A stretch of DNA of 64,000 nucleotides from NCBI GenBank assembly GCA_965658725.1, contig CBFHUI010000004.1, positions 2,825 to 66,824 of the forward strand, written 5' to 3'. Within the stretch, counting starts at the first letter, position 1, and the number at the start of each line of letters is the position of its first letter. This document shows, piece after piece, positions 3,011 through 59,607 of this stretch. The notes below the pieces were generated by a model. That model worked only from the letters and a program-made list of their open reading frames with translations. It ran no database searches and was not told the origin of the DNA. This stretch comes from Alphaproteobacteria bacterium (GTDB lineage Bacteria > Pseudomonadota > Alphaproteobacteria > UBA7985). Position numbers and translations under genes: made by a program.

Positions 3011-3960
3011 TCCTCTGCCTTCTCGGCGGCTTCAGCGGCGCGCATTTCAGCCAGTTCGGCGCGGATAGCGTGGAGTTCCTGCAGGATGGCGCGCTGCGCA
3101 GGGTCGGCAACCTCGTCAGCGGTCATGGTGCTTTCTGCTTCGTCCTTGGCCGAGTCCATGGCGTTCACCAGAATACCAATGAACAGGTTGAGCGCCGCAA
3201 ACGCTGAGATCACCACGAACAGCGTGAAGTAAACCCACGAGCTGGGGTGCACTTCCATGATTGGACGCACGATCCCGTGGGACCAGCTTTCCAGCGTCAT
3301 GATCTGGAACAGCGTGTAGAACGCGCGGCCTAGGTCGCCGAAGTAGTCGTACCCGTCCGCACCATAGCCGCCATAGAGCGTACCGCTGTAGAGCTGCACC
3401 CCGATCACGGCGAAGACATAGTGGATCAAGATCAGCAGCAGCGCCGCCGACCCCATCCCGGGCAGGGCGCGGAACAGGCCGGAGACCACCAGTCGCATCG
3501 CCGGGATTGCTGCGACCAGTCGGAGCACCCGCAGCACGCGCAGCGCCCGCAGCACCTTGAGCGAGTCCGTTGCCGGGACAAAGGCGACCGCGACCACAGC
3601 CAGATCGAACCAGTTCCACGGATCGCGGAAGAACCGCAAACGGTAGGCCGCCGCCTTGAGCGCGATTTCGCAGACGAAGAAGGCCAGCGCGATGGTGTCG
3701 AGGATCAGCAGGATCTGCCCAACCGAACCTTCGCCCGCTTCCCTTACGTTCTTCGACGTCAGCAGGCCGAGGATGATGGCGTTGGCGATGATGACCCCGA
3801 TCACCAGCGTGCGGAACCAGCGCGCCTCGACAAAGCGGGTCAGGCGGTTTTCCGGCCCAGCAGGCCGCTCGGGCTTGGGCTTGGCAGCCTTGGAGGTCGA
3901 GACGTGGGGGGCGTTGTTGGCGCGCGCGGCGGCGTGTGCGCCTGTGACGGGAGATTTCAT
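3007..3960 (-). CDS. Bacterial voltage-gated sodium channel (BacNav, ion transport protein)
   Basis: 6TM; S4 LRALRVLRVLRLV; pore FQIMTLESWSHGIVRPIM; S6 NLFIGILVNAM; C-terminal coiled coil. Confidence 0.92.
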   Translation of the reverse strand: MKSPVTGAHAAARANNAPHVSTSKAAKPKPERPAGPENRLTRFVEARWFRTLVIGVIIANAIILGLLTSKNVREAGEGSVGQILLILDTIALAFFVCEIALKAAAYRLRFFRDPWNWFDLAVVAVAFVPATDSLKVLRALRVLRVLRLVAAIPAMRLVVSGLFRALPGMGSAALLLILIHYVFAVIGVQLYSGTLYGGYGADGYDYFGDLGRAFYTLFQIMTLESWSHGIVRPIMEVHPSSWVYFTLFVVISAFAALNLFIGILVNAMDSAKDEAESTMTADEVADPAQRAILQELHAIRAELAEMRAAEAAEKAED

Positions 3961-9808: not shown

Positions 9809-11659
9809 ATGTGGTCCCTCACGCCTGCGCTGCTGCGCGCCCTAGACCCTGAAACCGCGCACCACGTGACTTTGCGCGGGTTGCGGCTGGGGCTGCACCC
9901 TCGTTTTCGCCAGCGTAAAGCGGCGCCCGCAGGTCAGCTGTTTGGCAAAGACCTGCCCAACCGCCTGGGCCTTGCAGCCGGGTTCGACAAGGACGCTGAG
10001 GCCGTCGCGGCACTGGCGGCGCTGGGCTTTGCGGCGGTTGAGGTTGGCTCGGTTACCCCGCAGCCCCAACCGGGAAACCCGCGCCCCCGCGTGTTCCGCC
10101 TGCCCGCCGACCGCGCTGTCATCAATCGTTACGGTTTTAACTCTGGCGGCCACGATCTGGTGCGCCGCAACCTCGACCGTCTTCGCCCGGAGCAGCGCCC
10201 GCCGCTGTTGGGCGTCAATCTGGGGGCCAACAAGACCTCCGAGAATGTTCCAGCGGACTTCGCGCTGGGTGTCAGCCGGTTTGCCGACATTGCTGATTAT
10301 CTGGTCATCAACGTATCCAGTCCAAACACGCCGGGCCTGCGGGATCACCAGACCATCGACGCGCTGGCTCGCATCCTCGACCTCGCCCTCGATGCCCGCG
10401 CACAGACCGCACCGACGCCGCTGATGCTCAAGATTGCCCCTGATCTAGCCGATGAAGACGTCGCCGCCATCGTTGATCTTGCGCTCGACCGGGGGATCGA
10501 GGGCCTGATCGCGACCAACACCACCATTGCCCGGCCCGACGGCCTGAAGGGCGCAGCGCAGACCCAAGCGGGCGGGCTATCCGGTCAGCCGCTGTTCGAG
10601 CGTGCGACCGAAGTGCTGACATCCATCCGGGAGCAGGCTGACGACCGCCTCGTCGTCTTTGGCACTGGCGGTGTTTCGACCCCGGAGCAGGCGCAGGAAA
10701 AGGTCCGCCGGGGCGCTGATCTGGTCCAGCTCTACACGGGCCTGATTTATGGCGGTCCGGCACTGGTCCGGCCGCTCATGCAGGCGGTTTCGCTGCCGAC
10801 GAAGACCCAGCGGGTGAGCGGGCTCAATCAGCTGATCGACGAGCGTCGCTATCGCGGGCTGATCGTCGATCTGTGGGGGGTCATGCACAACGGTAAGGCG
10901 CTCTTCCCCGAAGCGGTCGAGGCGTTGCGCCGCGCCCGGCAGCGGGGGTTGCAGGTGCAGTTCCTCTCCAACGCACCGCGCCGCGCGCACTCCATCGCTG
11001 GCCTGTTGGAGAAAATGGGCCTCCGGGCCGAGAGCTACGACGGCATTGTCTCCAGCGGTGAAGAAAGCTGGCAGGCGCTGCGCGACCGAACGGCGCTGTT
11101 CTATGAAGAACTTGGCCCGCGCTGCTTCCATTTGGGAGCGGGTGAGAAAGACGCAAACATGCGCGAAGGGCTGGATTTTGCCTTTCAGGATCAGCTCGAC
11201 GGCGCAGACTGGATCCTCAACACCGGCCCAGCCGCCAGCACGGATATCGCCGAGTGGCTGCCGCTGCTGCGGAAGGCGCTGGCGCTGGACCTTCCCATGG
11301 TGTGCGCCAACCCGGACCGCGTGGTCATGCGAGGCGAGTCCAAGGAGCTGTGCGCGGGCGCGCTCGCTGAGTGGTACGAGGCCGAGGGCGGGGTCGTCAG
11401 CTGGCACGGCAAGCCCTATCCATCGGTTTACGCCACCGCCCGCCGCGCCATGAACCTCCCGCGCCACGAAGTCCTTGCCATTGGCGACAGCTTCACCACC
11501 GACGTTGCGGGGGCGCAGACGGCGGGGATCGACGTCCTGCTGGTCAACACCGGCATCCACCAAAGCGACCTCGATGGCGATCTGATGGGCGGCGTTGACC
11601 GCCTCTCTGTCGAAAAAGGCCTGCGCCCGACGTTTGCGGCTGACAGGTTGCAGTTCTAA
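9809..11659 (+). CDS. pyrD: Fusion: quinone-dependent dihydroorotate dehydrogenase + HAD-IIA hydrolase (TIGR01459-like)
   Basis: Residues 1-~330: LAAGFDK, NRYGFNS, VINVSSPNTPGLR, KIAPDL, GGLSG, LYTGLIYGGP. Residues ~336-616: DLWGVMHNG, FLSNAPR, CANPD, HGKP, IGDSFTTDVAGA. No stop codon between the parts. Confidence 0.9.
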   Translation: MWSLTPALLRALDPETAHHVTLRGLRLGLHPRFRQRKAAPAGQLFGKDLPNRLGLAAGFDKDAEAVAALAALGFAAVEVGSVTPQPQPGNPRPRVFRLPADRAVINRYGFNSGGHDLVRRNLDRLRPEQRPPLLGVNLGANKTSENVPADFALGVSRFADIADYLVINVSSPNTPGLRDHQTIDALARILDLALDARAQTAPTPLMLKIAPDLADEDVAAIVDLALDRGIEGLIATNTTIARPDGLKGAAQTQAGGLSGQPLFERATEVLTSIREQADDRLVVFGTGGVSTPEQAQEKVRRGADLVQLYTGLIYGGPALVRPLMQAVSLPTKTQRVSGLNQLIDERRYRGLIVDLWGVMHNGKALFPEAVEALRRARQRGLQVQFLSNAPRRAHSIAGLLEKMGLRAESYDGIVSSGEESWQALRDRTALFYEELGPRCFHLGAGEKDANMREGLDFAFQDQLDGADWILNTGPAASTDIAEWLPLLRKALALDLPMVCANPDRVVMRGESKELCAGALAEWYEAEGGVVSWHGKPYPSVYATARRAMNLPRHEVLAIGDSFTTDVAGAQTAGIDVLLVNTGIHQSDLDGDLMGGVDRLSVEKGLRPTFAADRLQF

Positions 11660-11828
11660 TTTGAATTATCTGAGATTACGCGAAAAAAGACGTTGAAGCC
11701 TTTGTAAAACTGCGTTATTTCTTCTGGCATTATGCGGCAGTGTCGATTCATTTTTACGACACGCCTTCGATTTTTCAGCCCCGTGTTTGAGTCTCGGGGC
11801 GCGCATTTGATGTTCAGGAGCAGTGCCC

Positions 11829-14570
11829 ATGACGGCGCAGTTAAAGCCCGCTTCACGCTTTGAATCCTACACACCGACGCTTGTCTTCGCCCTGATCATG
11901 ACGGGTGCCTGGCTGGTCGCGGGTTGGTCTTTGTTTGGCTACTACGGCGGCCCGACCGCCTTTGCCAGCCTGAGTCCAGCGGAAGTAGGGCTGGTGATTT
12001 GCGGGGGCTTGCTGCCGCTTATGGCGATCTGGATCCTGTGCGGCATGCTGGTTGTAGGCACGCGCTTGCGCAACTCGATGATGCAGGAGCTTAGCACCCT
12101 GCGCACCGTGAACATCATGCCCGAGGAAACCCAGGCTCACATCAAGTCGATCACCCGCGCCTTTGAAGACCGCGTTGGGCACTTGCAGGGCGTGACCAGC
12201 GGTATTCTGACCTCGCTGGAGTCCGCGACAGGCCAGTTTGAGCGGCAGTCGGATATGCTGGAGGCGCTGTCCTACCGCGTTGATGAGCAGTCGAACACGA
12301 TTTCGACCGCACTGAGCATTCAAGGCAATCAGCTGACCGGGGCCGAAGGACGGATTGACCGCATGGTCAACCGCATGAAGCACGCCATGGAAGACGTCCG
12401 CGATGCGGGCGAGACCTTCCGCGAGAACCTCTCCAAGCCGATCGCTGAAGTCCAAGACACGCTCGCCGACGCGACCGCTTCGATCCATACGCAGATCGAC
12501 GACATCTGGTCCCGGCTGGAGCTGCTCGACGCCGCGCAGGCCGAGACCGAAGAAGCCACGGCCCGGACACGCGCCGCGCTGGAAGCGGAGTCCGAGAACC
12601 TGCGCCACACCGCTGACGAGGCCCTCGCGAATGTAGAGAGCATGTCGCTCAAGCTGACCGGGCAGATTGATTTGCTCAAGACTGTGTCTGACGATGCCAA
12701 CGACGTGGCGGATCAGATGCAGGGCCGGTTGGAAGAGCAGTCCAAGGCGCTGCGGCAGGCGGGCAATGACCTTTCCACCCACGCCAACGAACTGCATCAG
12801 GCGATTCAGGATCAGGCGGCGCACCTCACGCATTTGCAGGAGTCCGTTGATACATACGGCGGCGCGATCTCTGAAGAGTTCGAAAAGAAGATCGAGAAGC
12901 TCATGAATTCGGCACGCGAGGCGGCGGCTATTGTCGGTGAGGAAACAGCACTTGCCACCCGCCGCGCGATCGACGAGCTGTCGGAGAACGGCGACAAGCT
13001 CACCGGCAACATCAGCTTCGTCTCCGAGCGGGTTGAGCAGCTGACCGAAGCGCTCGAAACCGGCGCGGCGACGCTCAAGGAAACCGCGCTCTCGGCCAAG
13101 GCGGCGATGCAGGCCGGGGCTGACGAAGCGGCGAAGACCATGACGGACTCGACCAAGGGCGCAGAGGTTCGCTTTGTCGAGCTCGGCGACGCTTGGGCCG
13201 ATGCGCTGGAGGAGCAATCTTCGCGGCTCGAAAGCTTGCAGGAGATGGCAACCGCGGCTGAAGACAGCACCTTTGCCCGCGCTGAAGAGGCTGTTGTGCA
13301 CCTCGCCGAGCGCCTCGACCATGCGCTGCAGGAACGGTTTGAGGATGAACACGGCGCCTTTAACACCGCGCAACGGCAGATTGATGCTGCGGCACAGCGG
13401 ACCGTGAACAACTACCACCGCTTGGTCGGCAGCTTTGTCGATGATCTGACCAAGAAGGCCGGGGCTGAGATGGAATGTCTCATGACCTGGGGGCAGGAAA
13501 TTCCGCGCGCCGCCGAGCACCTGCGCGAAACAGCGGCTGAGGTTGTTCACTTGATGGACGAGAAGACCAAGGCTCTTCTTACCCGCACCGATGAAGTGCG
13601 CCACGCGACCACGGATGCACTGTCTGCAACGCAAAGCCTGTTCGATGGGATCTCGCAGGGGCCGGAGCGCCTGACGGAGACGGTGACGGCGCTGCGCGAT
13701 GCGTCGTCTTCGGCGGTCGAAGATCTACGCCTGCAAACCGAGACGCTGAACTCCTTGCTGGTGGACAGTCGCAATCGGTTGGTCCGGTTGACTGAGAAGT
13801 TCCATCAGGGCGTCAACGACGACGCGGTTGACTCTCGTCTCATGCGTTTGGCCGAGGCGATCGAAGCGGGTGAAGGCGCGCTGCGTCAGGCGGCGTCTGC
13901 GTTTGACGATACGACCCATCAGGCGGCTGAGTCCGCGCATTCGGCGGCAGGCCGTTTGCTCGAAACCTCTCGCCTTGTCGGCGCGCAAGTTGAGATGCTG
14001 CGGGATATGACCACCAACACGGAAAGCGCCAACAACCTGCGGCGTGTGACCGATCAGGCTGACGAGCTGCGGGTGATCCTTGAACAAATCGGGGTCGCGG
14101 CGGAGAACCACCAGCTGACGCTGGTCCGCGTGACGGAGGAGGCTAAGAGCCAGTCGGAAAAGCTGCTCCAGACGGTGAAGCACTCCGAGCGAGATGCCTT
14201 CCTCAACGAAGCGTCATCCATGGTTGAGGCTCTGCACCAGGCGGCGATTGACGTTGACACCATCCTCGACGGTGATCTGCCGGGCGATGTGGTGATGGCG
14301 ATCAATGCGGGTGACCGAGGCGTGTCTGTCCGCCGCCTGCTCAGCCGCTACACTCCTGCAGGCGCTGCGGCCATGGCGGACCTTTATGCCCGCGACCGGG
14401 CCTTTACGGCACAGGTGGACCGCTACTTGGAAACCTTCGACAGCCTGCTCGAACAGGCCAACCGCGTGGACCGGTCCAAGCTGCTGCACACGACCTTCCT
14501 GACCGCAGACATTGGCAAGCTTTACGTCTTCCTTGCACGGTCGATCGGGGTGATGCAGGCCGCCGAGTAG
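11829..14570 (+). CDS. Membrane-anchored long helical protein, TipN/GPR(RgsE)-like polar scaffold
   Basis: Two N-terminal TM helices, about 750 aa A/E/L/T/Q-rich helical region, C-terminal LYARDRAFTAQVDRYLETFDSLL...FLTADIGKLYVFLARSIG resembling the conserved end of alphaproteobacterial polar landmark proteins. Confidence 0.65.
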   Translation: MTAQLKPASRFESYTPTLVFALIMTGAWLVAGWSLFGYYGGPTAFASLSPAEVGLVICGGLLPLMAIWILCGMLVVGTRLRNSMMQELSTLRTVNIMPEETQAHIKSITRAFEDRVGHLQGVTSGILTSLESATGQFERQSDMLEALSYRVDEQSNTISTALSIQGNQLTGAEGRIDRMVNRMKHAMEDVRDAGETFRENLSKPIAEVQDTLADATASIHTQIDDIWSRLELLDAAQAETEEATARTRAALEAESENLRHTADEALANVESMSLKLTGQIDLLKTVSDDANDVADQMQGRLEEQSKALRQAGNDLSTHANELHQAIQDQAAHLTHLQESVDTYGGAISEEFEKKIEKLMNSAREAAAIVGEETALATRRAIDELSENGDKLTGNISFVSERVEQLTEALETGAATLKETALSAKAAMQAGADEAAKTMTDSTKGAEVRFVELGDAWADALEEQSSRLESLQEMATAAEDSTFARAEEAVVHLAERLDHALQERFEDEHGAFNTAQRQIDAAAQRTVNNYHRLVGSFVDDLTKKAGAEMECLMTWGQEIPRAAEHLRETAAEVVHLMDEKTKALLTRTDEVRHATTDALSATQSLFDGISQGPERLTETVTALRDASSSAVEDLRLQTETLNSLLVDSRNRLVRLTEKFHQGVNDDAVDSRLMRLAEAIEAGEGALRQAASAFDDTTHQAAESAHSAAGRLLETSRLVGAQVEMLRDMTTNTESANNLRRVTDQADELRVILEQIGVAAENHQLTLVRVTEEAKSQSEKLLQTVKHSERDAFLNEASSMVEALHQAAIDVDTILDGDLPGDVVMAINAGDRGVSVRRLLSRYTPAGAAAMADLYARDRAFTAQVDRYLETFDSLLEQANRVDRSKLLHTTFLTADIGKLYVFLARSIGVMQAAE

Positions 14571-14596
14571 GCGCTCGCCCGGATAGGACGATCAAG

Positions 14597-14636
14597 AAAA
14601 GCGCCGGCTGCTCAGGTGAAACTGAGCGGCCGGCGC
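14597..14636. terminator. Intrinsic terminator between convergent genes
   Basis: AAAA-GCGCCGGCTGCTCAG-GTGAAA-CTGAGCGGCCGGCGC, 15-bp stem; T-tract on the minus strand. Confidence 0.85.
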
Positions 14637-14667
14637 GTGTCGTTCTGGGGCGGTTGAGGCGGGGCGT

Positions 14668-15237
14668 CTACTGGCCGCGCGACACAGCTTGCATGATGTA
14701 ACTGGCGGAACCCGGGCGGGCATAGACTTCGGGGAAGCCTTCCGCGCTGTACGCAGGCGCGGCGTAGCCCATGGGCCTCGCGCTGGGAACGCCGTAACCG
14801 GGCAGGCCAGAGGTATCGTGCACCACCATGACGTTCGAACCGTAGCCCTGCATCTGATCGGCGGCGGCGACTTGCCCCTGATAGGACAGGATCGACTGCG
14901 CCTGCTCAGCGTAAGTCGCGCTGTCCTGCATGCTGTATCCATGGCCGTGGCCAGAGACGTGGGCCGAGCCGTAACCGGCCGATACCGCAGGCGCGGCGTA
15001 CTGGACGTGGGGCGCGTACGTGGGCTGGGCGGCATAACCGGTCTTGGTATAGGCTTGGTGCGTGTTGGCTGCTGCAACGTGCGCGTTGCCGCCGTATGAG
15101 AAGGTCACAATCGACCCTGCTGGAGCGGGCGCGTAGCCGGTTTTTGAGTAGCTGTAGGATTGGGCTTGGGCAGTTTGTACAGCGAAGACCCCGGCGATCA
15201 GCGCCGCCGGGATGATCAAATATTATAAGGTCCGCAT
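14668..15237 (-). CDS. Secreted Tyr/Ala/Gly-rich low-complexity protein B; in-frame TAA at codon 5 (or alternative TTG start at 15219)
   Basis: ATG CGG ACC TTA TAA TAT TTG ATC ATC CCG = MRTL*YLIIPAALIAGVFAVQTAQA; mature part has YxKTGYA twice and YAAP/YAP repeats. Confidence 0.7.
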
Positions 15238-15323
15238 GAAACTCTGCTTCTTCAAAAGGTCTAAATTGGTCGTCCAAACGGGCGCTCGGATTGGGAGCGA
15301 AGCGCCGCAGTAGCGAGATAAAC

Positions 15324-15339
15324 TGCAATGGTAGGGCCA
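15324..15339 (-). promoter_or_regulatory. sigma54 promoter of protein B gene
   Basis: Minus strand TGGCCCTACCATTGCA: GG-N10-GC with TGGC and TTGCA. Confidence 0.65.
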
Positions 15340-15459
15340 GTCGGGAGGAAGGACTGGCTCTGCGCATAAGGGCGGTTTACTCGGACCAAATCACCAAAAG
15401 AGAGACAATAAAGTGTCTTGCACGCAGAAGGGGCAGAACCGAATTGCGACGGTGGTCGC

Positions 15460-15999
15460 TTACTGAGTCGGAATAATTTGCGGGTAGGACGCAGATTGGG
15501 CCGGCTGAGCATAGGGGTTCGCCGCTGGCTGAGCTTGCGGGTAGCCCTGCGCGAGTGCCTGCGGAGCAACCTGCTGCTGGCCATACTGAATGACCTGCTG
15601 TTGCTGTTGCTGCTGGACCATCGCCCCTTCAACGCCGCTCACCACAGGCAGAACAGCGGCTTCATACACCACCGGCTTTTGCGTGGTGTAAACCTGCTGC
15701 ACTGGCAACTGAACAGGCTGTTGGTAGTAGGTGAAGGTCTGCGGCGCGTAGACCGGAATGCGGGCCTTGCTGTAGACCGCAGGCGCGCCGCCGGTCGCGG
15801 CGTAGCCGGTGCCGTGGGCAGACGGCATGTGATAGCCTTGGCCCTGGTGCGTGAAGTTCACCACGCTGTTGGGGTTGATCGCAACCTGGGGCGCGTAGCC
15901 GGTCTTGTTGTAGACCATGGGAGCCTGAAATTGTGCGGAGGCCACAGTCGGTGCGATCATCAGAGCACCGAGGCCTGCAAGCAGAAGAGAACGTAACAT
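15460..15999 (-). CDS. Secreted Gln/Tyr/Pro-rich low-complexity protein A (paralog of B)
   Basis: AGGAA Shine-Dalgarno; signal peptide MLRSLLLAGLGALMIAPTVASA; YNKTGYAP...SVVNF; Q7 tract; no Cys/Trp/Asp. Confidence 0.8.
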   Translation of the reverse strand: MLRSLLLAGLGALMIAPTVASAQFQAPMVYNKTGYAPQVAINPNSVVNFTHQGQGYHMPSAHGTGYAATGGAPAVYSKARIPVYAPQTFTYYQQPVQLPVQQVYTTQKPVVYEAAVLPVVSGVEGAMVQQQQQQQVIQYGQQQVAPQALAQGYPQAQPAANPYAQPAQSASYPQIIPTQ

Positions 16000-16050
16000 G
16001 GGCAGTTCCTAGAGGAATGAAACGAAAAGCAGAGAGCTTCCCGCCTCCTC

Positions 16051-16066
16051 CGCAAACGCGATACCA
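16051..16066 (-). promoter_or_regulatory. sigma54 promoter of protein A gene
   Basis: Minus strand TGGTATCGCGTTTGCG: GG-N10-GC with TTGC; predicted TSS about 41 nt before the ATG. Confidence 0.6.
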
Positions 16067-16129
16067 AGTCAGTTTTCACTACTTTCGGGCAGATTAGGCC
16101 CCACTTTGCCTCGTTTTTCCCTACGCTCA

Positions 16130-16161
16130 CGCATAAGAAAATGCGGTGACAAAGTTATGCG
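16130..16161. promoter_or_regulatory. Palindromic candidate upstream activator sequence
   Basis: CGCATAA-N18-TTATGCG with nested CGCAT-AAGAAA-ATGCG, about 90-120 nt upstream of the predicted sigma54 TSS. Confidence 0.4.
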
Positions 16162-16174
16162 CCCCCTATCCCCA

Positions 16175-17170
16175 TTATCCGACATCGTCCTTGAGGCTTC
16201 TGGCCAGCAGTTGGGTCATGAGGTCCTGAGGCGAGAGATTGTCCCGGATGAGCTGCCCCACGGCCTGCGAGATCGGCAGATCCAGCGCAGCGGTGCGCGC
16301 TCCGGCCAGCAGGGCGAGCGCGGCCTGCGCGCCTTCGACCGTGATGCCTTGGGCGAGTAGGGCATCAGCCTGCCCGCCTAGTCCCAGCTGAACACCAAAG
16401 CGATGATTGCGCGACTGGCTGTCCTGACAGGTCAGCGCCAGATCGCCAAGACCGGCCAACCCAGCAGCCGTCCGCTGCTGCCCGCCGTAAACAGCGATGA
16501 CCCGCTCGATCTCCCGGAGGCCGCGCGTCATCAGTGCTGATCGCGCGCTCGCGCCCAGCCCCATACCGTCCGAACAGCCACAGGCGATGGCAATCACGTT
16601 CTTGAGGGCCCCGCAGACCTGCACGCCAACAGGGTCGTCGCGCTGATATAGGCGGAGTTGGGGTGTGCTCAGCTGTTCGATCATGGCGGTTTGAACGCCG
16701 TTGGCGGCGAGCGTCAGAGCGGTCGGACGACCTGCAAACAAGTCTGCGGCAAAGGAAGGCCCGCTCAGTACCGCCAGACCACCGGGCGGGCTCAAGGCTT
16801 CGCTCAACAAGTCGCCCGTAGCGGTGGCAAAGCCCTTGGAAACGGTGACAACTTGGCAAGTCTGGGGCACGTGCGGGGCCAGCGCGGCAAAGACCTCAGC
16901 CTGCGCGCGTGCCTTGACCGCAAGGATCAGGACGTCGCCAGGCGCCATTGCTTCGCCTGCCGCGCCAAAGCGGTCGAGCGTGCCAGCCCGTACACCAGTG
17001 AGCGGCAAACAACCCGGTACGCGCGGGTTGTGGCCATCGTGGTTCAGCCGTTCTGCCTGCTCAGGATCCCGGCACCAAAGCTGCACCGACACATCGGCCG
17101 AGAGCCAGACTTTGGCCAGCGCGGAGCCAAAGGCACCGGCGCCAACAATATGCACGCTCCCCCGGCTCAC
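16175..17170 (-). CDS. gpsA: NAD(P)H-dependent glycerol-3-phosphate dehydrogenase
   Basis: IVGAGAFGSALA, SKG, LSGPSFA, GALKNVIAIACG, GLGDLALTC..SRN, VEG. Confidence 0.95.
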   Translation of the reverse strand: MSRGSVHIVGAGAFGSALAKVWLSADVSVQLWCRDPEQAERLNHDGHNPRVPGCLPLTGVRAGTLDRFGAAGEAMAPGDVLILAVKARAQAEVFAALAPHVPQTCQVVTVSKGFATATGDLLSEALSPPGGLAVLSGPSFAADLFAGRPTALTLAANGVQTAMIEQLSTPQLRLYQRDDPVGVQVCGALKNVIAIACGCSDGMGLGASARSALMTRGLREIERVIAVYGGQQRTAAGLAGLGDLALTCQDSQSRNHRFGVQLGLGGQADALLAQGITVEGAQAALALLAGARTAALDLPISQAVGQLIRDNLSPQDLMTQLLARSLKDDVG

Positions 17171-17275
17171 TGGCCTGCGTTCAAAAAGTGTTGAAGCATA
17201 GCGGCTCCTCCCTTGTTCTCAGGGCCATTAGTCTGCACATCACTTGTATTCCATATCAGTAGAAAGCGCCGCTTG

Positions 17276-19186
17276 ATGACCGACAATACAGCCAACCCCG
17301 GCCAATCCAAAGACGCCGCCGGGTCGGCAGTTCCCCGGACCAAAGGCCCTTCCGCCGGGACGCCAGCTGGCTCTGGCGGCGCGCCGGATACGCCAAAGGC
17401 GTCTTACGAGCGGGACGGCAACCAATTCGTTACTGCACTGAACCTGCTGCGCTACCTCTGGCCTGCTGACAAGCCGCGTCTGCGGTTGCTGTTCGTTCTG
17501 ACTGGACTGGCGATTTTGGCTGGACAGCTGTTCCTGGCCGTGACGCCGTTGGTGTTTGCAACGGCGGTGGATGCGGTTGGGGGTGAGGGCGCCTTTCCGA
17601 ACGCTTCTCTGGCGTTGATCGTCGGTCTCGTCGCCGCCTTTGGCCTCGCGCGCTTGCTGGCGCAGGGCAGTCAGGAGCTGAGTTCCGCGCTGTTTATCTT
17701 CGTGGGACAGAACGGGATTCGCACGGTTGCGCTGGAAACCTTCAAACACCTGCACCAGTTGAGCCTGCGCTTCCACCTCGACCGTCAGACCGGGGGGTTG
17801 AGCCGGGCGATTGAGCGGGGGACAAAGGGCATCGAATTCGTGCTGCGGATGATGACCTTTAACCTCGTGCCCACGACTTTTGCGATTGTGATCGTAAGCG
17901 TCATCCTACTGGTCAACTTCGGTGCGATTTACGCCATCATCACCTTTGTCACCGTGGTCGGTTACATCATTTACACGATCGCCGTAACCGAATGGCGCAT
18001 CAAGTATCGCCGGATGATGAACCAGACCGACTCAGAAGCGACGACCAAGGCTGTAGACTCGCTGCTGAACTACGAGACGGTGAAGTATTTCTCCAACGAA
18101 GACCACGAAGCCGTGCGCTATGACAGCGCGCTGCGAGGCTACGAGTCCGCTGCGGTGAACAGCCAGCTGTCCCTGTCACTGCTCAACCTCGGCCAAGGCG
18201 TGATCATCGCGGGTGGGCTGGTGCTGCTGCTCAGCCTGGCTGTGCCGTCCGTCATGTCGGGCGAGATGACCGTGGGCGACTTTGTGGCGATTCAAGCCTA
18301 TCTGATCCAGCTTTACCTCCCGCTCAACTTCCTCGGTTTCGCCTACCGTGAGATCAAACAGGGGCTGGTGGACATGGAGTACATGTTCAACCTGCTCGAA
18401 GTGGAGCGCGAAGTGCCTGACGGGCCTGGCGCAACAGATATTGCCGTAAGCGGCGGTCTGCTGGCCTTCCGCGATGTTGATTTTGGCTACAACAACGATC
18501 GCCAGATTCTGCACAAGCTCGATTTTGAGGTGCAGCCGGGAAAGACGTTGGCCATTGTCGGGCCGAGTGGTTCGGGCAAGTCTACCATCGGCCGCATGCT
18601 GTTCCGCTTCTATGACGTCTGGGACGGTGGCATTGAGATCGACGGGCAAGACTTGCGGGGCGTGACGCAGTCTTCCCTGCGCGAGGTGATCGGGATCGTG
18701 CCGCAGGACACCGTGCTGTTCAACGACACCATCGCCTATAACATCGCCTATGGCCGCCCGAATGCGAGCCGCGATGAGGTGATCGAAGCGGCCAAGCTGG
18801 CGCAGATCCACAACTTCATCCTTGATCTCCCCGAAGGCTACGACACTCGCGTGGGTGAGCGAGGGCTCAAGCTCTCAGGCGGGGAGCGTCAGCGGGTCTC
18901 GATCGCGCGGACGATCCTGAAAAATCCGGCCATCTTGCTGTTCGACGAAGCCACTTCGGCCCTCGACACCGACACCGAGTCGGCGATTCAGGCGTCTTTG
19001 GCAGCGGTTTCCCGGGATCGCACCACGCTCGTAATCGCGCACCGCCTCTCGACTGTGGTCGATGCAGACGAGATTATTGTGCTCGATAAGGGCCGAATCG
19101 TCGAAAAAGGCGCGCATCAGGCGCTTTTGGAGCGCGATGGGGTCTATGCGCACATGTGGCATTCGCAACAGGAAGCTGATGAGTAA
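17276..19186 (+). CDS. ATM1/HMT1-type ABCB half transporter (TMD+NBD)
   Basis: SLRFHLDRQTGG, DSLLNYETVKYF, GPSGSGKST, LSGGERQR, LLFDEATSALD; ATG 17276. Confidence 0.92.
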   Translation: MTDNTANPGQSKDAAGSAVPRTKGPSAGTPAGSGGAPDTPKASYERDGNQFVTALNLLRYLWPADKPRLRLLFVLTGLAILAGQLFLAVTPLVFATAVDAVGGEGAFPNASLALIVGLVAAFGLARLLAQGSQELSSALFIFVGQNGIRTVALETFKHLHQLSLRFHLDRQTGGLSRAIERGTKGIEFVLRMMTFNLVPTTFAIVIVSVILLVNFGAIYAIITFVTVVGYIIYTIAVTEWRIKYRRMMNQTDSEATTKAVDSLLNYETVKYFSNEDHEAVRYDSALRGYESAAVNSQLSLSLLNLGQGVIIAGGLVLLLSLAVPSVMSGEMTVGDFVAIQAYLIQLYLPLNFLGFAYREIKQGLVDMEYMFNLLEVEREVPDGPGATDIAVSGGLLAFRDVDFGYNNDRQILHKLDFEVQPGKTLAIVGPSGSGKSTIGRMLFRFYDVWDGGIEIDGQDLRGVTQSSLREVIGIVPQDTVLFNDTIAYNIAYGRPNASRDEVIEAAKLAQIHNFILDLPEGYDTRVGERGLKLSGGERQRVSIARTILKNPAILLFDEATSALDTDTESAIQASLAAVSRDRTTLVIAHRLSTVVDADEIIVLDKGRIVEKGAHQALLERDGVYAHMWHSQQEADE

Positions 19187-56971: not shown

Positions 56972-57337
56972 ATGGCTGAATCTCATCGTCAACAGCGTGT
57001 AGCGGAACGTATCCGCAAAATCCTGTCCGCAGAACTGGCGAAAAGCAACTTCTCAGATGCCGTGCTCGACCGGCAACCCATCACCATCACCCATGTTGAT
57101 CCCTCTCCCGACTTGCGTCATGCGAAGGTCTTTTTCACCGCTTTGGGGGGTGTGGCGCTGGTGCCGGTCAAGGATCTCAAGGATGCACTGACCCGGCAAA
57201 AGACCGCGTTGCAGTCGGCGCTGGGTCGGCAATTGACCATGAAGTTCACGCCAAAGCTTACGTTTGTCCCTGACGATGCCTTTGACAAAGCCGATCACAT
57301 GAACCGGCTCATCCATGGTTTGCCACAAGCGAACTGA
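56972..57337 (+). CDS. rbfA: Ribosome-binding factor A
   Basis: AGGAGG SD; RQQRVAERIR, ITITHV..SPDLRHAKVF, MKFTPKLTFV.D. Confidence 0.88.
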   Translation: MAESHRQQRVAERIRKILSAELAKSNFSDAVLDRQPITITHVDPSPDLRHAKVFFTALGGVALVPVKDLKDALTRQKTALQSALGRQLTMKFTPKLTFVPDDAFDKADHMNRLIHGLPQAN

Positions 57338-57812
57338 TCGCCTTCGCAGTCTGGGAAAGTCCGGCTCGGCGCAGGTCGTCGGGGTGGTGGTCTGGGCTCT
57401 GCAGCGCTGTCGCATGGGCCGCGAAGAAAGCGTCGATACTCACTCGATCCAGCCCAAGCGGTCTTAACTGCCGCAGGGGAAAGTCGCGGGCGTTGCTGGT
57501 AACAATCAAGCTGGCGTCAGCACTCAGCGCCGCTTCGATCACATGCAGATCGCCGGGATCGCGGAAGCCGTTGGCGGAGAGCGGGAGCGGGGCGGGTGTG
57601 ACGATGCTGGCCTGAAACTGGGTCAGAAAAACCTCAGCATCGGGCATGGCTCGAGCGGTGAGAACGGCGCGGAGCTCCTCGACGGTGCGCGTGGACCAGA
57701 GCGGCTGAATCGTGCCTGTCCGAGCAAGATCGGCAATCAACGCCCGCACTCGAAAACGAAAAAGCGCGTTGGTGTCGAACACAACGCGCTTTGAGGTGGG
57801 TGAGGATGCCAC
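57309..57812 (-). CDS. PIN-domain protein (PIN_3-like)
   Basis: VVFDTNAL, WS....EEL, DPGDLHVIEAA, IVTSNARDFP. Confidence 0.8.
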   Translation of the reverse strand: MASSPTSKRVVFDTNALFRFRVRALIADLARTGTIQPLWSTRTVEELRAVLTARAMPDAEVFLTQFQASIVTPAPLPLSANGFRDPGDLHVIEAALSADASLIVTSNARDFPLRQLRPLGLDRVSIDAFFAAHATALQSPDHHPDDLRRAGLSQTAKAISSLVANHG

Positions 57813-57826
57813 GGAAAGGCGGCTTC

Positions 57827-59464
57827 TTAGCTCTTGGACTCGAGCGTTTCCCAGTGCTGACGCTTGCGGTAGATCGTTGAAGCAGAGATCCCAAGCAGTG
57901 CGGCTGCTTTCGGGATGTTACCACCACAGGACTCGATGGCGTCCTCGATGGCCTGCTTCTCTGTTTCCCACAGGGGCAGAATGCCTTCAGCACGCCGCCG
58001 GATTGGCGCGCCTTCACCAGCAGCAGCCGGGTTGACGATGCCCTCAATCGGGGCAGTGGAGCGCGGAGACAGCGGGTTGGGCGTGCTGGTCGTCGCGCGC
58101 AGGGCTTCTGCGGCGAGGTTCTCGGCCAGCGGACTAGCGGGTGCGGACGGCACGCTGTTCTGCGGAGGAGCCACGGAGACCGGGGATGCGCCGCCTTGGT
58201 TGGGTAGAGCGGTCGGCGCGCCAGCGGTGAACATGGCGGGTGGGGTATGCGCGTGAACACCCGGAACGCGGCCCGGGCCAGACCCTGCCGGGTTTACGGG
58301 TGCTGGCACCATATCGGCTGTTACCTGCTCACCCTTGTTCAGGACGACGATGTTACGGATAACGTTCTGCAGCTGGCGGACGTTGCCCGGCCAAGGATAG
58401 TTCAGGAACATGCGGGAGACTTCGGGGTCGAAATCGCGGAAGCGCTTGTTCTCTTCAGCAGCAAACTCCACCAGAATCTTGCGGGCAATGTCGAGCGTAT
58501 CGCCCTCACGCGCGCGCAGCGGTGGCAGGTGGATCGGAATGACGTGCAGGCGGTAGTAGAGGTCTTCGCGGAAGCGGCCTTCGCCGATTTCCACCAGCGG
58601 ATCGCGGTTGGTGGCGCAGATGAAGCGGATATCAACCTTCTGCTGCTTGGTTCCACCGACTTTGGTGAAGGTGCCGGTCTGGATAAAGCGCAGCAGCTTG
58701 GACTGCAGGTGCAGGTCCATTTCGCAGACTTCGTCGAGGAACAGCGTACCGCCCTCCGCCTGCGAGGCCGCGCCTTCGTGATCGCTGATCGCGCCGGTAA
58801 AGGCGCCTTTCACGTGACCGAAGATTTCGGATTCCATCAGGTCTTTCGGGATCGCTGCACAGTTCAGCACGACAAGCGGCTTTTTCGCGCGCGGGGAAAG
58901 ACGATGGATGGCTTCGGCCGTGACTTCTTTACCTGTACCAGACTCGCCGGTGATGAAGGTTGTGGCCTTGGACGGCGCGGCGGATTCCACCATGCGGTAG
59001 ATGACCTGCATGGCCTTGGACTTGCCAATGAAGCCCTGAAAGCCCTTGGTCGAGACCGGCTTGGGGTTGGCGATGACCTGCTGCTTGATGCTCTCGCGCT
59101 TCAAAGCGGCGGTGAGCGTCTGGACGAGGCGCTGTCGGTTGAACGGCTTGACGAGGAAGTCGTACGCCCCGCCGCGCATGGTCTCGACCGCCATGTTGAT
59201 CGAGCCGTGAGCCGTAATCATGATGACGGCGGAGTTGAGGCCGCGCTCCTGGATAAAGTCGAGGATCTCCGTGCCGTTCATATCGGGCAGACGAACGTCC
59301 AGCAAAATGACGTCGGGTTCATCGTTGGAGAGATGCTTGAGCGCTTCCTTGCCACTGCTGGCGTGCGTGATGTCGAGCGGCTCCTCTTTCAGATATTCCT
59401 TATACAGGGAAACCAGAGGCTGCTCATCTTCAACAAGCAAAACTTTAAAGCGTTGTGCGCTCAT
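57827..59464 (-). CDS. sigma54-dependent response regulator (REC-AAA+-Fis HTH), LuxO-like
   Basis: VED, LLDVRLPDM, TAHGS, QGFIG, GESGTGKE, GAFTGA, FLDEVCEMDLHLQSKLLRFIQTGTF, WPGNVRQLQN, ILPLWETEKQAIEDAI..C.GNIPKAA. Confidence 0.9.
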   Translation of the reverse strand: MSAQRFKVLLVEDEQPLVSLYKEYLKEEPLDITHASSGKEALKHLSNDEPDVILLDVRLPDMNGTEILDFIQERGLNSAVIMITAHGSINMAVETMRGGAYDFLVKPFNRQRLVQTLTAALKRESIKQQVIANPKPVSTKGFQGFIGKSKAMQVIYRMVESAAPSKATTFITGESGTGKEVTAEAIHRLSPRAKKPLVVLNCAAIPKDLMESEIFGHVKGAFTGAISDHEGAASQAEGGTLFLDEVCEMDLHLQSKLLRFIQTGTFTKVGGTKQQKVDIRFICATNRDPLVEIGEGRFREDLYYRLHVIPIHLPPLRAREGDTLDIARKILVEFAAEENKRFRDFDPEVSRMFLNYPWPGNVRQLQNVIRNIVVLNKGEQVTADMVPAPVNPAGSGPGRVPGVHAHTPPAMFTAGAPTALPNQGGASPVSVAPPQNSVPSAPASPLAENLAAEALRATTSTPNPLSPRSTAPIEGIVNPAAAGEGAPIRRRAEGILPLWETEKQAIEDAIESCGGNIPKAAALLGISASTIYRKRQHWETLESKS

Positions 59465-59607
59465 CAATATCAAATCCCATGCCAAAGCGTAGGCAATAAC
59501 AATTTACGGCTAAACAATATGCGACGTTGTAATTCTCGATCTAAGTACGCTGCGAAAACCACTGAAATCAAGGATTTTTTTCGGTTTTGACGCAATTCGT
59601 TTGATCG

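Follow-up and report, generated by a model that had tools for sequence, protein, structure and literature searches.

Two adjacent genes for secreted low-complexity proteins with probable sigma-54 promoters in a clade of uncultured marine Alphaproteobacteria

Two adjacent genes for small secreted proteins, here called A and B, appear in all likelihood to be separate transcription units, each with a genuine sigma-54 (RpoN) promoter of the -24/-12 type, as judged from sequence comparison across related lineages. The window, i.e. the whole 64-kb stretch of alphaproteobacterial DNA that was analysed, has a G+C content of 61%, and apart from A and B its genes are those of an ordinary chromosomal core (infB, nusA, lnt, phoH, miaB, accA, cobT, queG and others). 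On the minus strand gpsA (17170-16175) is followed by A (15999-15460) and then B (15237 or 15219 to 14668), the latter two lying in tandem on the same strand in an adjacency that is constant across loci. In the proposed mechanism, sigma-54 RNA polymerase would bind the GG and GC elements ahead of each gene and stay there as a closed complex, which an ATP-hydrolysing enhancer-binding protein bound upstream would remodel; A would then be transcribed from about position 16040 and B from about 15313. The enhancer of A would be the inverted repeat CGCATAA-N18-TTATGCG at about -105, B would have a single copy of the heptamer about 23 nt above its -24 element, and a LuxO-like activator encoded elsewhere in the window is a possible regulator of both promoters. 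The features on which this proposal draws are collected in Table 1.

Table 1. Features of the A-B locus and the candidate activator gene, in window coordinates
Feature	Position	Strand	Remarks
Candidate enhancer (UAS) of A, inverted repeat CGCATAA-N18-TTATGCG	16130-16161	-	centre about -105 from the predicted start
TAGTGA box	16076-16081	-	about 10 nt upstream of the -24 element of A; TAGT invariant in the alignment
Sigma-54-type promoter of A, TGGTATCGCGTTTGCG	16051-16066	-	intergenic, faces A; predicted start about 16040
Gene A	15460-15999	-	179 aa; Sec signal peptide (...VASA/Q); Q/P/Y/A-rich mature part
100-nt element bounded by TTATTCCGAC...GTCCGAGTAA	15377-15476	-	overlaps the last 5 codons of A in the window
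TTATGCG box upstream of B	15363-15369	-	same heptamer as the A half-site; about 23 nt upstream of the -24 element
7-bp inverted repeat GCCAGTC-N9-GACTGGC	15336-15358	-	overlaps the -24 element of B
Sigma-54-type promoter of B, TGGCCCTACCATTGCA	15324-15339	-	intergenic, faces B; predicted start about 15313
Gene B	14668-15237	-	189 codons from ATG 15237; signal peptide (...TAQA/Q); Y/G/A-rich mature part
Intrinsic terminator after B	14594-14634	-	13-bp GC-rich stem then TTTTCTT, canonical; read from sequence
Candidate activator, LuxO-like bEBP	57827-59485	-	receiver, AAA+ with GAFTGA, long P/A-rich linker, Fis-type helix-turn-helix

The two motifs and their conservation across relatives

Both motifs had been picked out in a first-pass annotation of the same DNA, and direct reading returned their sequences, coordinates, strand and orientation into the genes as described there, with GG-N10-GC and TTGC present at each: the A motif has GG at 16065/16064 (-25/-24) and GC at 16053/16052 (-13/-12), and the B motif has GG at 15338/15337 and GC at 15326/15325. 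When the C of the GC is set as -12, the predicted leaders come to 41 nt for A (to ATG 15999) and 76 nt for B (to ATG 15237), the same values for leaders and starts as had been put forward. The window itself contains 17 copies of TGG-N8-TTGC where 11.6 would be expected, a count equalled or exceeded in 7 of 100 shuffles and so not significant. All 1153 GG-N10-GC sites of the window were also scored against the consensus TGGCACG-N4-TTGCW, which has 12 specified positions. The B motif agrees at 10 of the 12, which places it in the top four sites and makes it the sole intergenic one of those four, and the A motif agrees at 8 of the 12, a modest value that 164 sites reach and that is unremarkable in a single sequence. 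Since the motif count alone is not significant, the case for the promoters rests on conservation.

The comparison set consisted of 28 syntenic loci from approximately 10 distinct lineages, with A proteins 41-58% identical to that of the window. Both motifs were kept in every locus covering the regions, with the exception of the -12 element of B in the metagenome-assembled genome L015, which reads TTAC (AC for GC) where the near-identical contig L027 has TTGC. No other stretch of 16 columns in the upstream alignment is as well conserved as the A motif (97% mean column identity), which outranks the ribosome-binding site and the start codon; its consensus across lineages is TTTGGTATCG[C/G/T][G/T][C/T]TTGCG, in which the variable positions are confined to the spacer. 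At B, apart from the TTAC of L015, no change is seen in TGGCC or TTGC, and the spacer takes the forms TACCA, TGCCG, CGGCG, TGGCG, CTTGG, CGCCG and CTGAG. TGG and ATG are 66-68 nt apart for A across lineages; the corresponding distance for B falls at 100-102 nt in the window and in L001, L013 and L015, and at approximately 127-129 nt in L014 and L016. In the alignments of both genes two blocks are held at a fixed distance and the changes fall in the spacer, which at B is of free sequence. This is the pattern that sigma-54 contacts predict, and the conservation shows that precisely these positions are under selection. Such two-block conservation is hard to explain other than by a sigma-54 footprint, and the earlier proposal that each gene has its own sigma-54 promoter thus gains support from comparison across lineages.

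A coincidental likeness, in which the blocks would be the sites of another regulator or the promoter of another sigma factor, was considered very unlikely. The modest match of A to the consensus would suit it, as would the conserved TAGTGA box and the T-runs nearby, which indicate that other elements are under selection in the same DNA too. However, two separate blocks match TGG-N8-TTGC exactly, for which a rough estimate gives a chance of about 0.002 per block, the B pattern is bipartite, neither block has dyad symmetry, and a consensus scan of 14000-17500 for sigma-70 promoters returned no match.

The proteins encoded by A and B match no family in Pfam or NCBIfam. A search of 5.8 billion proteins gave just 11 relatives of protein A, every one of them from an uncultured marine alphaproteobacterium, and AlphaFold2 run on A with 11 sequences gave a mean pLDDT of 44 and no confident fold. 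Pairwise BLAST between A and B is marginal (E = 9e-4 over 45 residues), and profile-profile comparison relates the two at 95% probability (E = 3.8e-8) over just 51 N-terminal columns, corresponding to a shared module made up of the signal peptide and Y-S-K-T-G-Y-A-P...V.Y..NGQ (approximately 35 mature residues). The description of the two proteins as paralogs consequently holds for an N-terminal module of approximately 50 residues and does not extend to the whole protein or its fold. The two promoters had likewise been counted as two independent matches; there are two, but their independence is uncertain, given that a shared origin by duplication is possible.

Individual copies of both genes carry nonsense codons. 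The B frame of the window is interrupted at codon 5 by a TAA (15225-15223, in the context ATG CGG ACC TTA TAA TAT TTG) and reopens at TTG 15219, a start that would leave the signal peptide without its charged N-region. The same codon is AAA (Lys) in L007-L010 and L017, five conspecific contigs whose DNA is 98.6% identical. Gene A of L015 has an in-frame TAA at approximately 3166-3168, giving VT*HQQ where the others have VTYHQQ, and it is intact in the near-identical L028. These stops may be strain-level knock-outs or errors of sequencing or assembly. The genome L015 thus combines a nonsense codon in A with the TTAC form of the -12 element of B (promoter at 3594-3608). Among the same-species contigs, L008 (Logan contig SRR36426618_311976) starts 39 nt upstream of the A ATG, 2 nt from the predicted start site, which may be coincidence; its sister contig L010 begins further upstream.

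The A-B spacer and the separation of the two units

The DNA between A and B contains a 100-nt element that varies between just 98 and 100 nt across the lineages (L001 6512-6611, L013 3476-3575, L014 3594-3692, L016 3524-3622) and whose ends in the relatives are invariant (TTATTCCGAC...GTCGGAATAA). The distance from the element to the TGG of B is 37-39 nt, and 49 nt in L016. In the relatives it forms a long hairpin directly after the A stop codon, with folding z scores of -4.9 to -6.4. The consensus hairpin has 28 pairs, 15 of them with compensatory changes, the outer 10-12 bp being unvarying and the interior covarying; 91.6% of its cells are paired, whereas shuffles reach 80.6%, 0 of 500 equalling the real alignment, and slid controls 32-44%. 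The hairpin is assigned to the sense strand because U-G and G-U wobbles occur in it. In the window and in L019 the element is degenerate: the A frame extends into the 5' arm, where it ends in IIPTQ, two changes are present in the 3' arm, and the folding z scores of -0.2 and -1.3 are no better than those of shuffles.

Several identities for this element were tried and set aside. It is not an intrinsic terminator, as it has no U-tract, the stem being followed by AAUAAUCCCC or similar and a T-run lying approximately 25 nt further on. A dispersed repeat or MITE was rejected for the DNA examined on the basis of copy number, with one copy per locus in approximately 122 kb of related loci and one in the window. 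The end of gpsA (GTCGGATAAT) looks similar to the 3' arm of the hairpin (GTCGGAATAAT), but to make anything of this was judged an over-reading, as the gpsA end is constrained by coding (DVG, then stop). An Rfam scan of 14400-16400 at E values up to 5 gave four chance-level matches (E >= 1.5), none of them in the A-B spacer. The most likely role of the hairpin is to mark the A transcript at its 3' end, or to stabilise it there, and to keep the two units apart.

The canonical intrinsic terminator downstream of B separates it from a convergent gene and may be bidirectional. The convergent gene (11823-14570, plus strand) encodes a 915-aa coiled-coil membrane protein with membrane segments at its N-terminus and long apolipoprotein-like coiled-coil repeats, and the same convergence on B is always found in the relatives. 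Beyond it, an unusual 616-aa ORF (9809-11659, plus strand), which is also present in L007, fuses dihydroorotate dehydrogenase and HAD-type hydrolase domains.

The hairpin of the relatives, together with the terminator after B, fits with separate transcription units. It is improbable that A and B instead form one operon, transcribed from the A promoter or by read-through from gpsA, with the B motif as a secondary internal element or regulatory site. Such an arrangement would be in keeping with two tandem genes that share a strand and keep their adjacency throughout, and with a hairpin after A that, for want of a U-tract, is no classical terminator and is degenerate in the window. However, the -24 and -12 blocks of B are invariant amid a drifting spacer and flanks, which is hard to explain without sigma-54 binding, and the distance from the B motif to its ATG is conserved in several lineages. 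Both observations favour a promoter at B in its own right.

The presence of a structured RNA in the spacer also bears on whether the conserved blocks themselves act as RNA, as part of 5'-UTR or 3'-UTR structures of longer transcripts, and not as promoter DNA, a possibility to which hardly any weight was given. Besides the covarying sense-strand hairpin, it could draw on a GGAG just after the TTGC of A that, by eye, may pair with a CTCC just before the ribosome-binding site, and on some compensatory change in the 7-bp repeat at the -24 element of B. However, the -24 and -12 blocks covary with no partner and are simply invariant, no Rfam family is matched, and the 7-bp repeat is only weakly supported: across 9 lineages 71% of its cells are paired against 64% in shuffles, with a change on both sides in 2 pairs. 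This repeat had been raised at the outset as a caveat to the B promoter; the overlap with the -24 element does exist, but the repeat is weakly conserved and offers no argument against a promoter at this position.

The candidate enhancer and activator

Upstream of A, the inverted repeat CGCATAA-N18-TTATGCG lies directly after the gpsA stop codon and is unique in the window, with 0 occurrences expected from shuffles. Its half-sites are invariant in sequence and exactly 25 nt apart in all lineages, and the distance from the start of the repeat to the TGG of A is 94 nt in the lineages and 95 nt in the window species, through intervening DNA that is heavily diverged. On account of this invariant sequence and fixed spacing, the repeat is the most likely candidate for the enhancer of A, and a centre near -105 is the classic position for a sigma-54 enhancer. 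The same invariance and spacing, along with the lack of a U-tract, rule it out as a gpsA terminator. Half-sites 25 bp apart, centre to centre, would be unusual for the dimer site of a bacterial enhancer-binding protein (bEBP), and to our knowledge the 7-N18-7 repeat has no likeness to the binding motifs of NtrC, NifA, DctD, FlbD or LuxO. The heptamer TTATGCG occurs five times in the window (both strands), three of these in the upstream regions of A and B, and the copy at B is kept as TTAYGCG in most lineages. At approximately -53 the B copy would be unusually close to the promoter for a typical enhancer. A search of the stretch from repeat to promoter in 10 lineages for the IHF consensus (WATCAANNNNTTR, at most one mismatch) gave nothing consistent, and no match at the TAGTGA box.

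The candidate activator gene (59485-57827) lies approximately 42 kb from A and B, and its product is one candidate regulator of the two. The Walker A motif (GESGTGK) is intact, as is GAFTGA, which was found by pattern search, and the Pfam matches, namely Sigma54_activat (PF00158, 6.6e-67), Response_reg and HTH_8 (2.1e-14), identify the protein as a bEBP. Among NCBIfam models it scores 630 bits for LuxO against 388 for NtrC, 308 for NtrX and 293 for FlbD; the LuxO score lies below the cut-off of 800 bits (NF041946), so that the protein is LuxO-like and not a LuxO equivalog. Against the PDB it scores 480 bits with LuxO (5EP0) and 330 bits with NtrC1. The C-terminal 170 residues, used as a query, returned fragments only, some of them labelled LuxO by JGI. 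No histidine kinase adjoins the gene, whose downstream neighbour codes for a PIN-domain protein (57309-57812, minus strand).

A pattern search for the RpoN box gave no match in the 64-kb window. GAFTGA proteins act only with sigma-54, and from the GAFTGA activator in the window it follows that the genome very probably carries rpoN. Activator-dependent expression, as proposed in the first-pass annotation, would follow for both genes from sigma-54 promoters at A and B, given the established mechanism in which the sigma-54 holoenzyme requires an activator; a GAFTGA gene is present in the same window. The accompanying suggestion of probably developmental expression is unsupported: nothing in the data bears on development, and the only tie is that Caulobacter TacA presumably falls in the same LuxO-like subgroup as the activator of the window.

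Significance and comparison with known systems

The promoters are very probably real, and they represent an ordinary bacterial switch of a well-known type; sigma-54 promoters are textbook elements, and no concept is changed by two further examples. Their value is practical: the clade is known only from metagenomes and its regulons are not measurable, so that two high-confidence sigma-54 targets validated by conservation, together with a candidate enhancer motif, are of use in it. The repeat and the -24/-12 pair could be used to scan the genomes of the clade for the rest of the regulon, a scan that might assign targets to the LuxO/TacA-like activator. The hairpin of the A-B spacer, with its covarying pairs, may represent a new RNA motif. 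A wider interpretation, offered tentatively and with less than even confidence, is that the locus is a previously undescribed, self-contained sigma-54 module of one uncultured marine alphaproteobacterial clade. On that joint reading its four parts would be two secreted low-complexity proteins with a common N-terminal module, a new enhancer motif (CGCATAA-N18-TTATGCG, with TTAYGCG at B) read by the LuxO/TacA-like activator, a new insulating or stabilising RNA of 100 nt with invariant ends, and the recurrent loss of A or B in individual genomes, in each case through a single nonsense codon. If true, such losses would point to a cost of the products or to selection on them that fluctuates.

The hairpin of the A-B spacer resembles other structured intergenic hairpins and 3'-UTR stem-loops that serve as insulators or mRNA stabilisers in being a long covarying hairpin after the stop codon of A, and differs from them in its fixed length, its unvarying outer pairs and its lack of an Rfam family.

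At -24, Klebsiella nifH likewise has TGGTAT. Classical sigma-54 promoters, such as those of nifH, glnA p2, rhizobial dctA and the Caulobacter class III/IV flagellar genes, have the same 10-nt spacing between GG and GC and the same intergenic, gene-facing position as the two promoters described here, and the published consensus is TGGca-N4-5-ttGCaa (PMC2831329). As in those classical promoters that have an enhancer, A has a conserved inverted repeat approximately 100 bp upstream. Unlike classical sigma-54 targets, A and B encode unannotated secreted low-complexity proteins with no link to nitrogen, dicarboxylates, flagella or stress, and unlike in the classical systems no IHF site was found here.

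The LuxO-like bEBP of the Alphaproteobacteria is TacA, the group including Caulobacter TacA and its relatives in that class. The site of Vibrio LuxO is TTGCA-N3-TGCAA, and no such sequence was visible by eye in the upstream sequences of A and B from the window and the relatives. TacA of S. meliloti is reported to have no known targets (PMC3616915), and no TacA binding motif is given in PMC7010744. In comparison with LuxO-type bEBPs, the activator of the window differs in its long P/A-rich linker and has the same build of receiver, AAA+ domain with GAFTGA and Fis-type helix-turn-helix.
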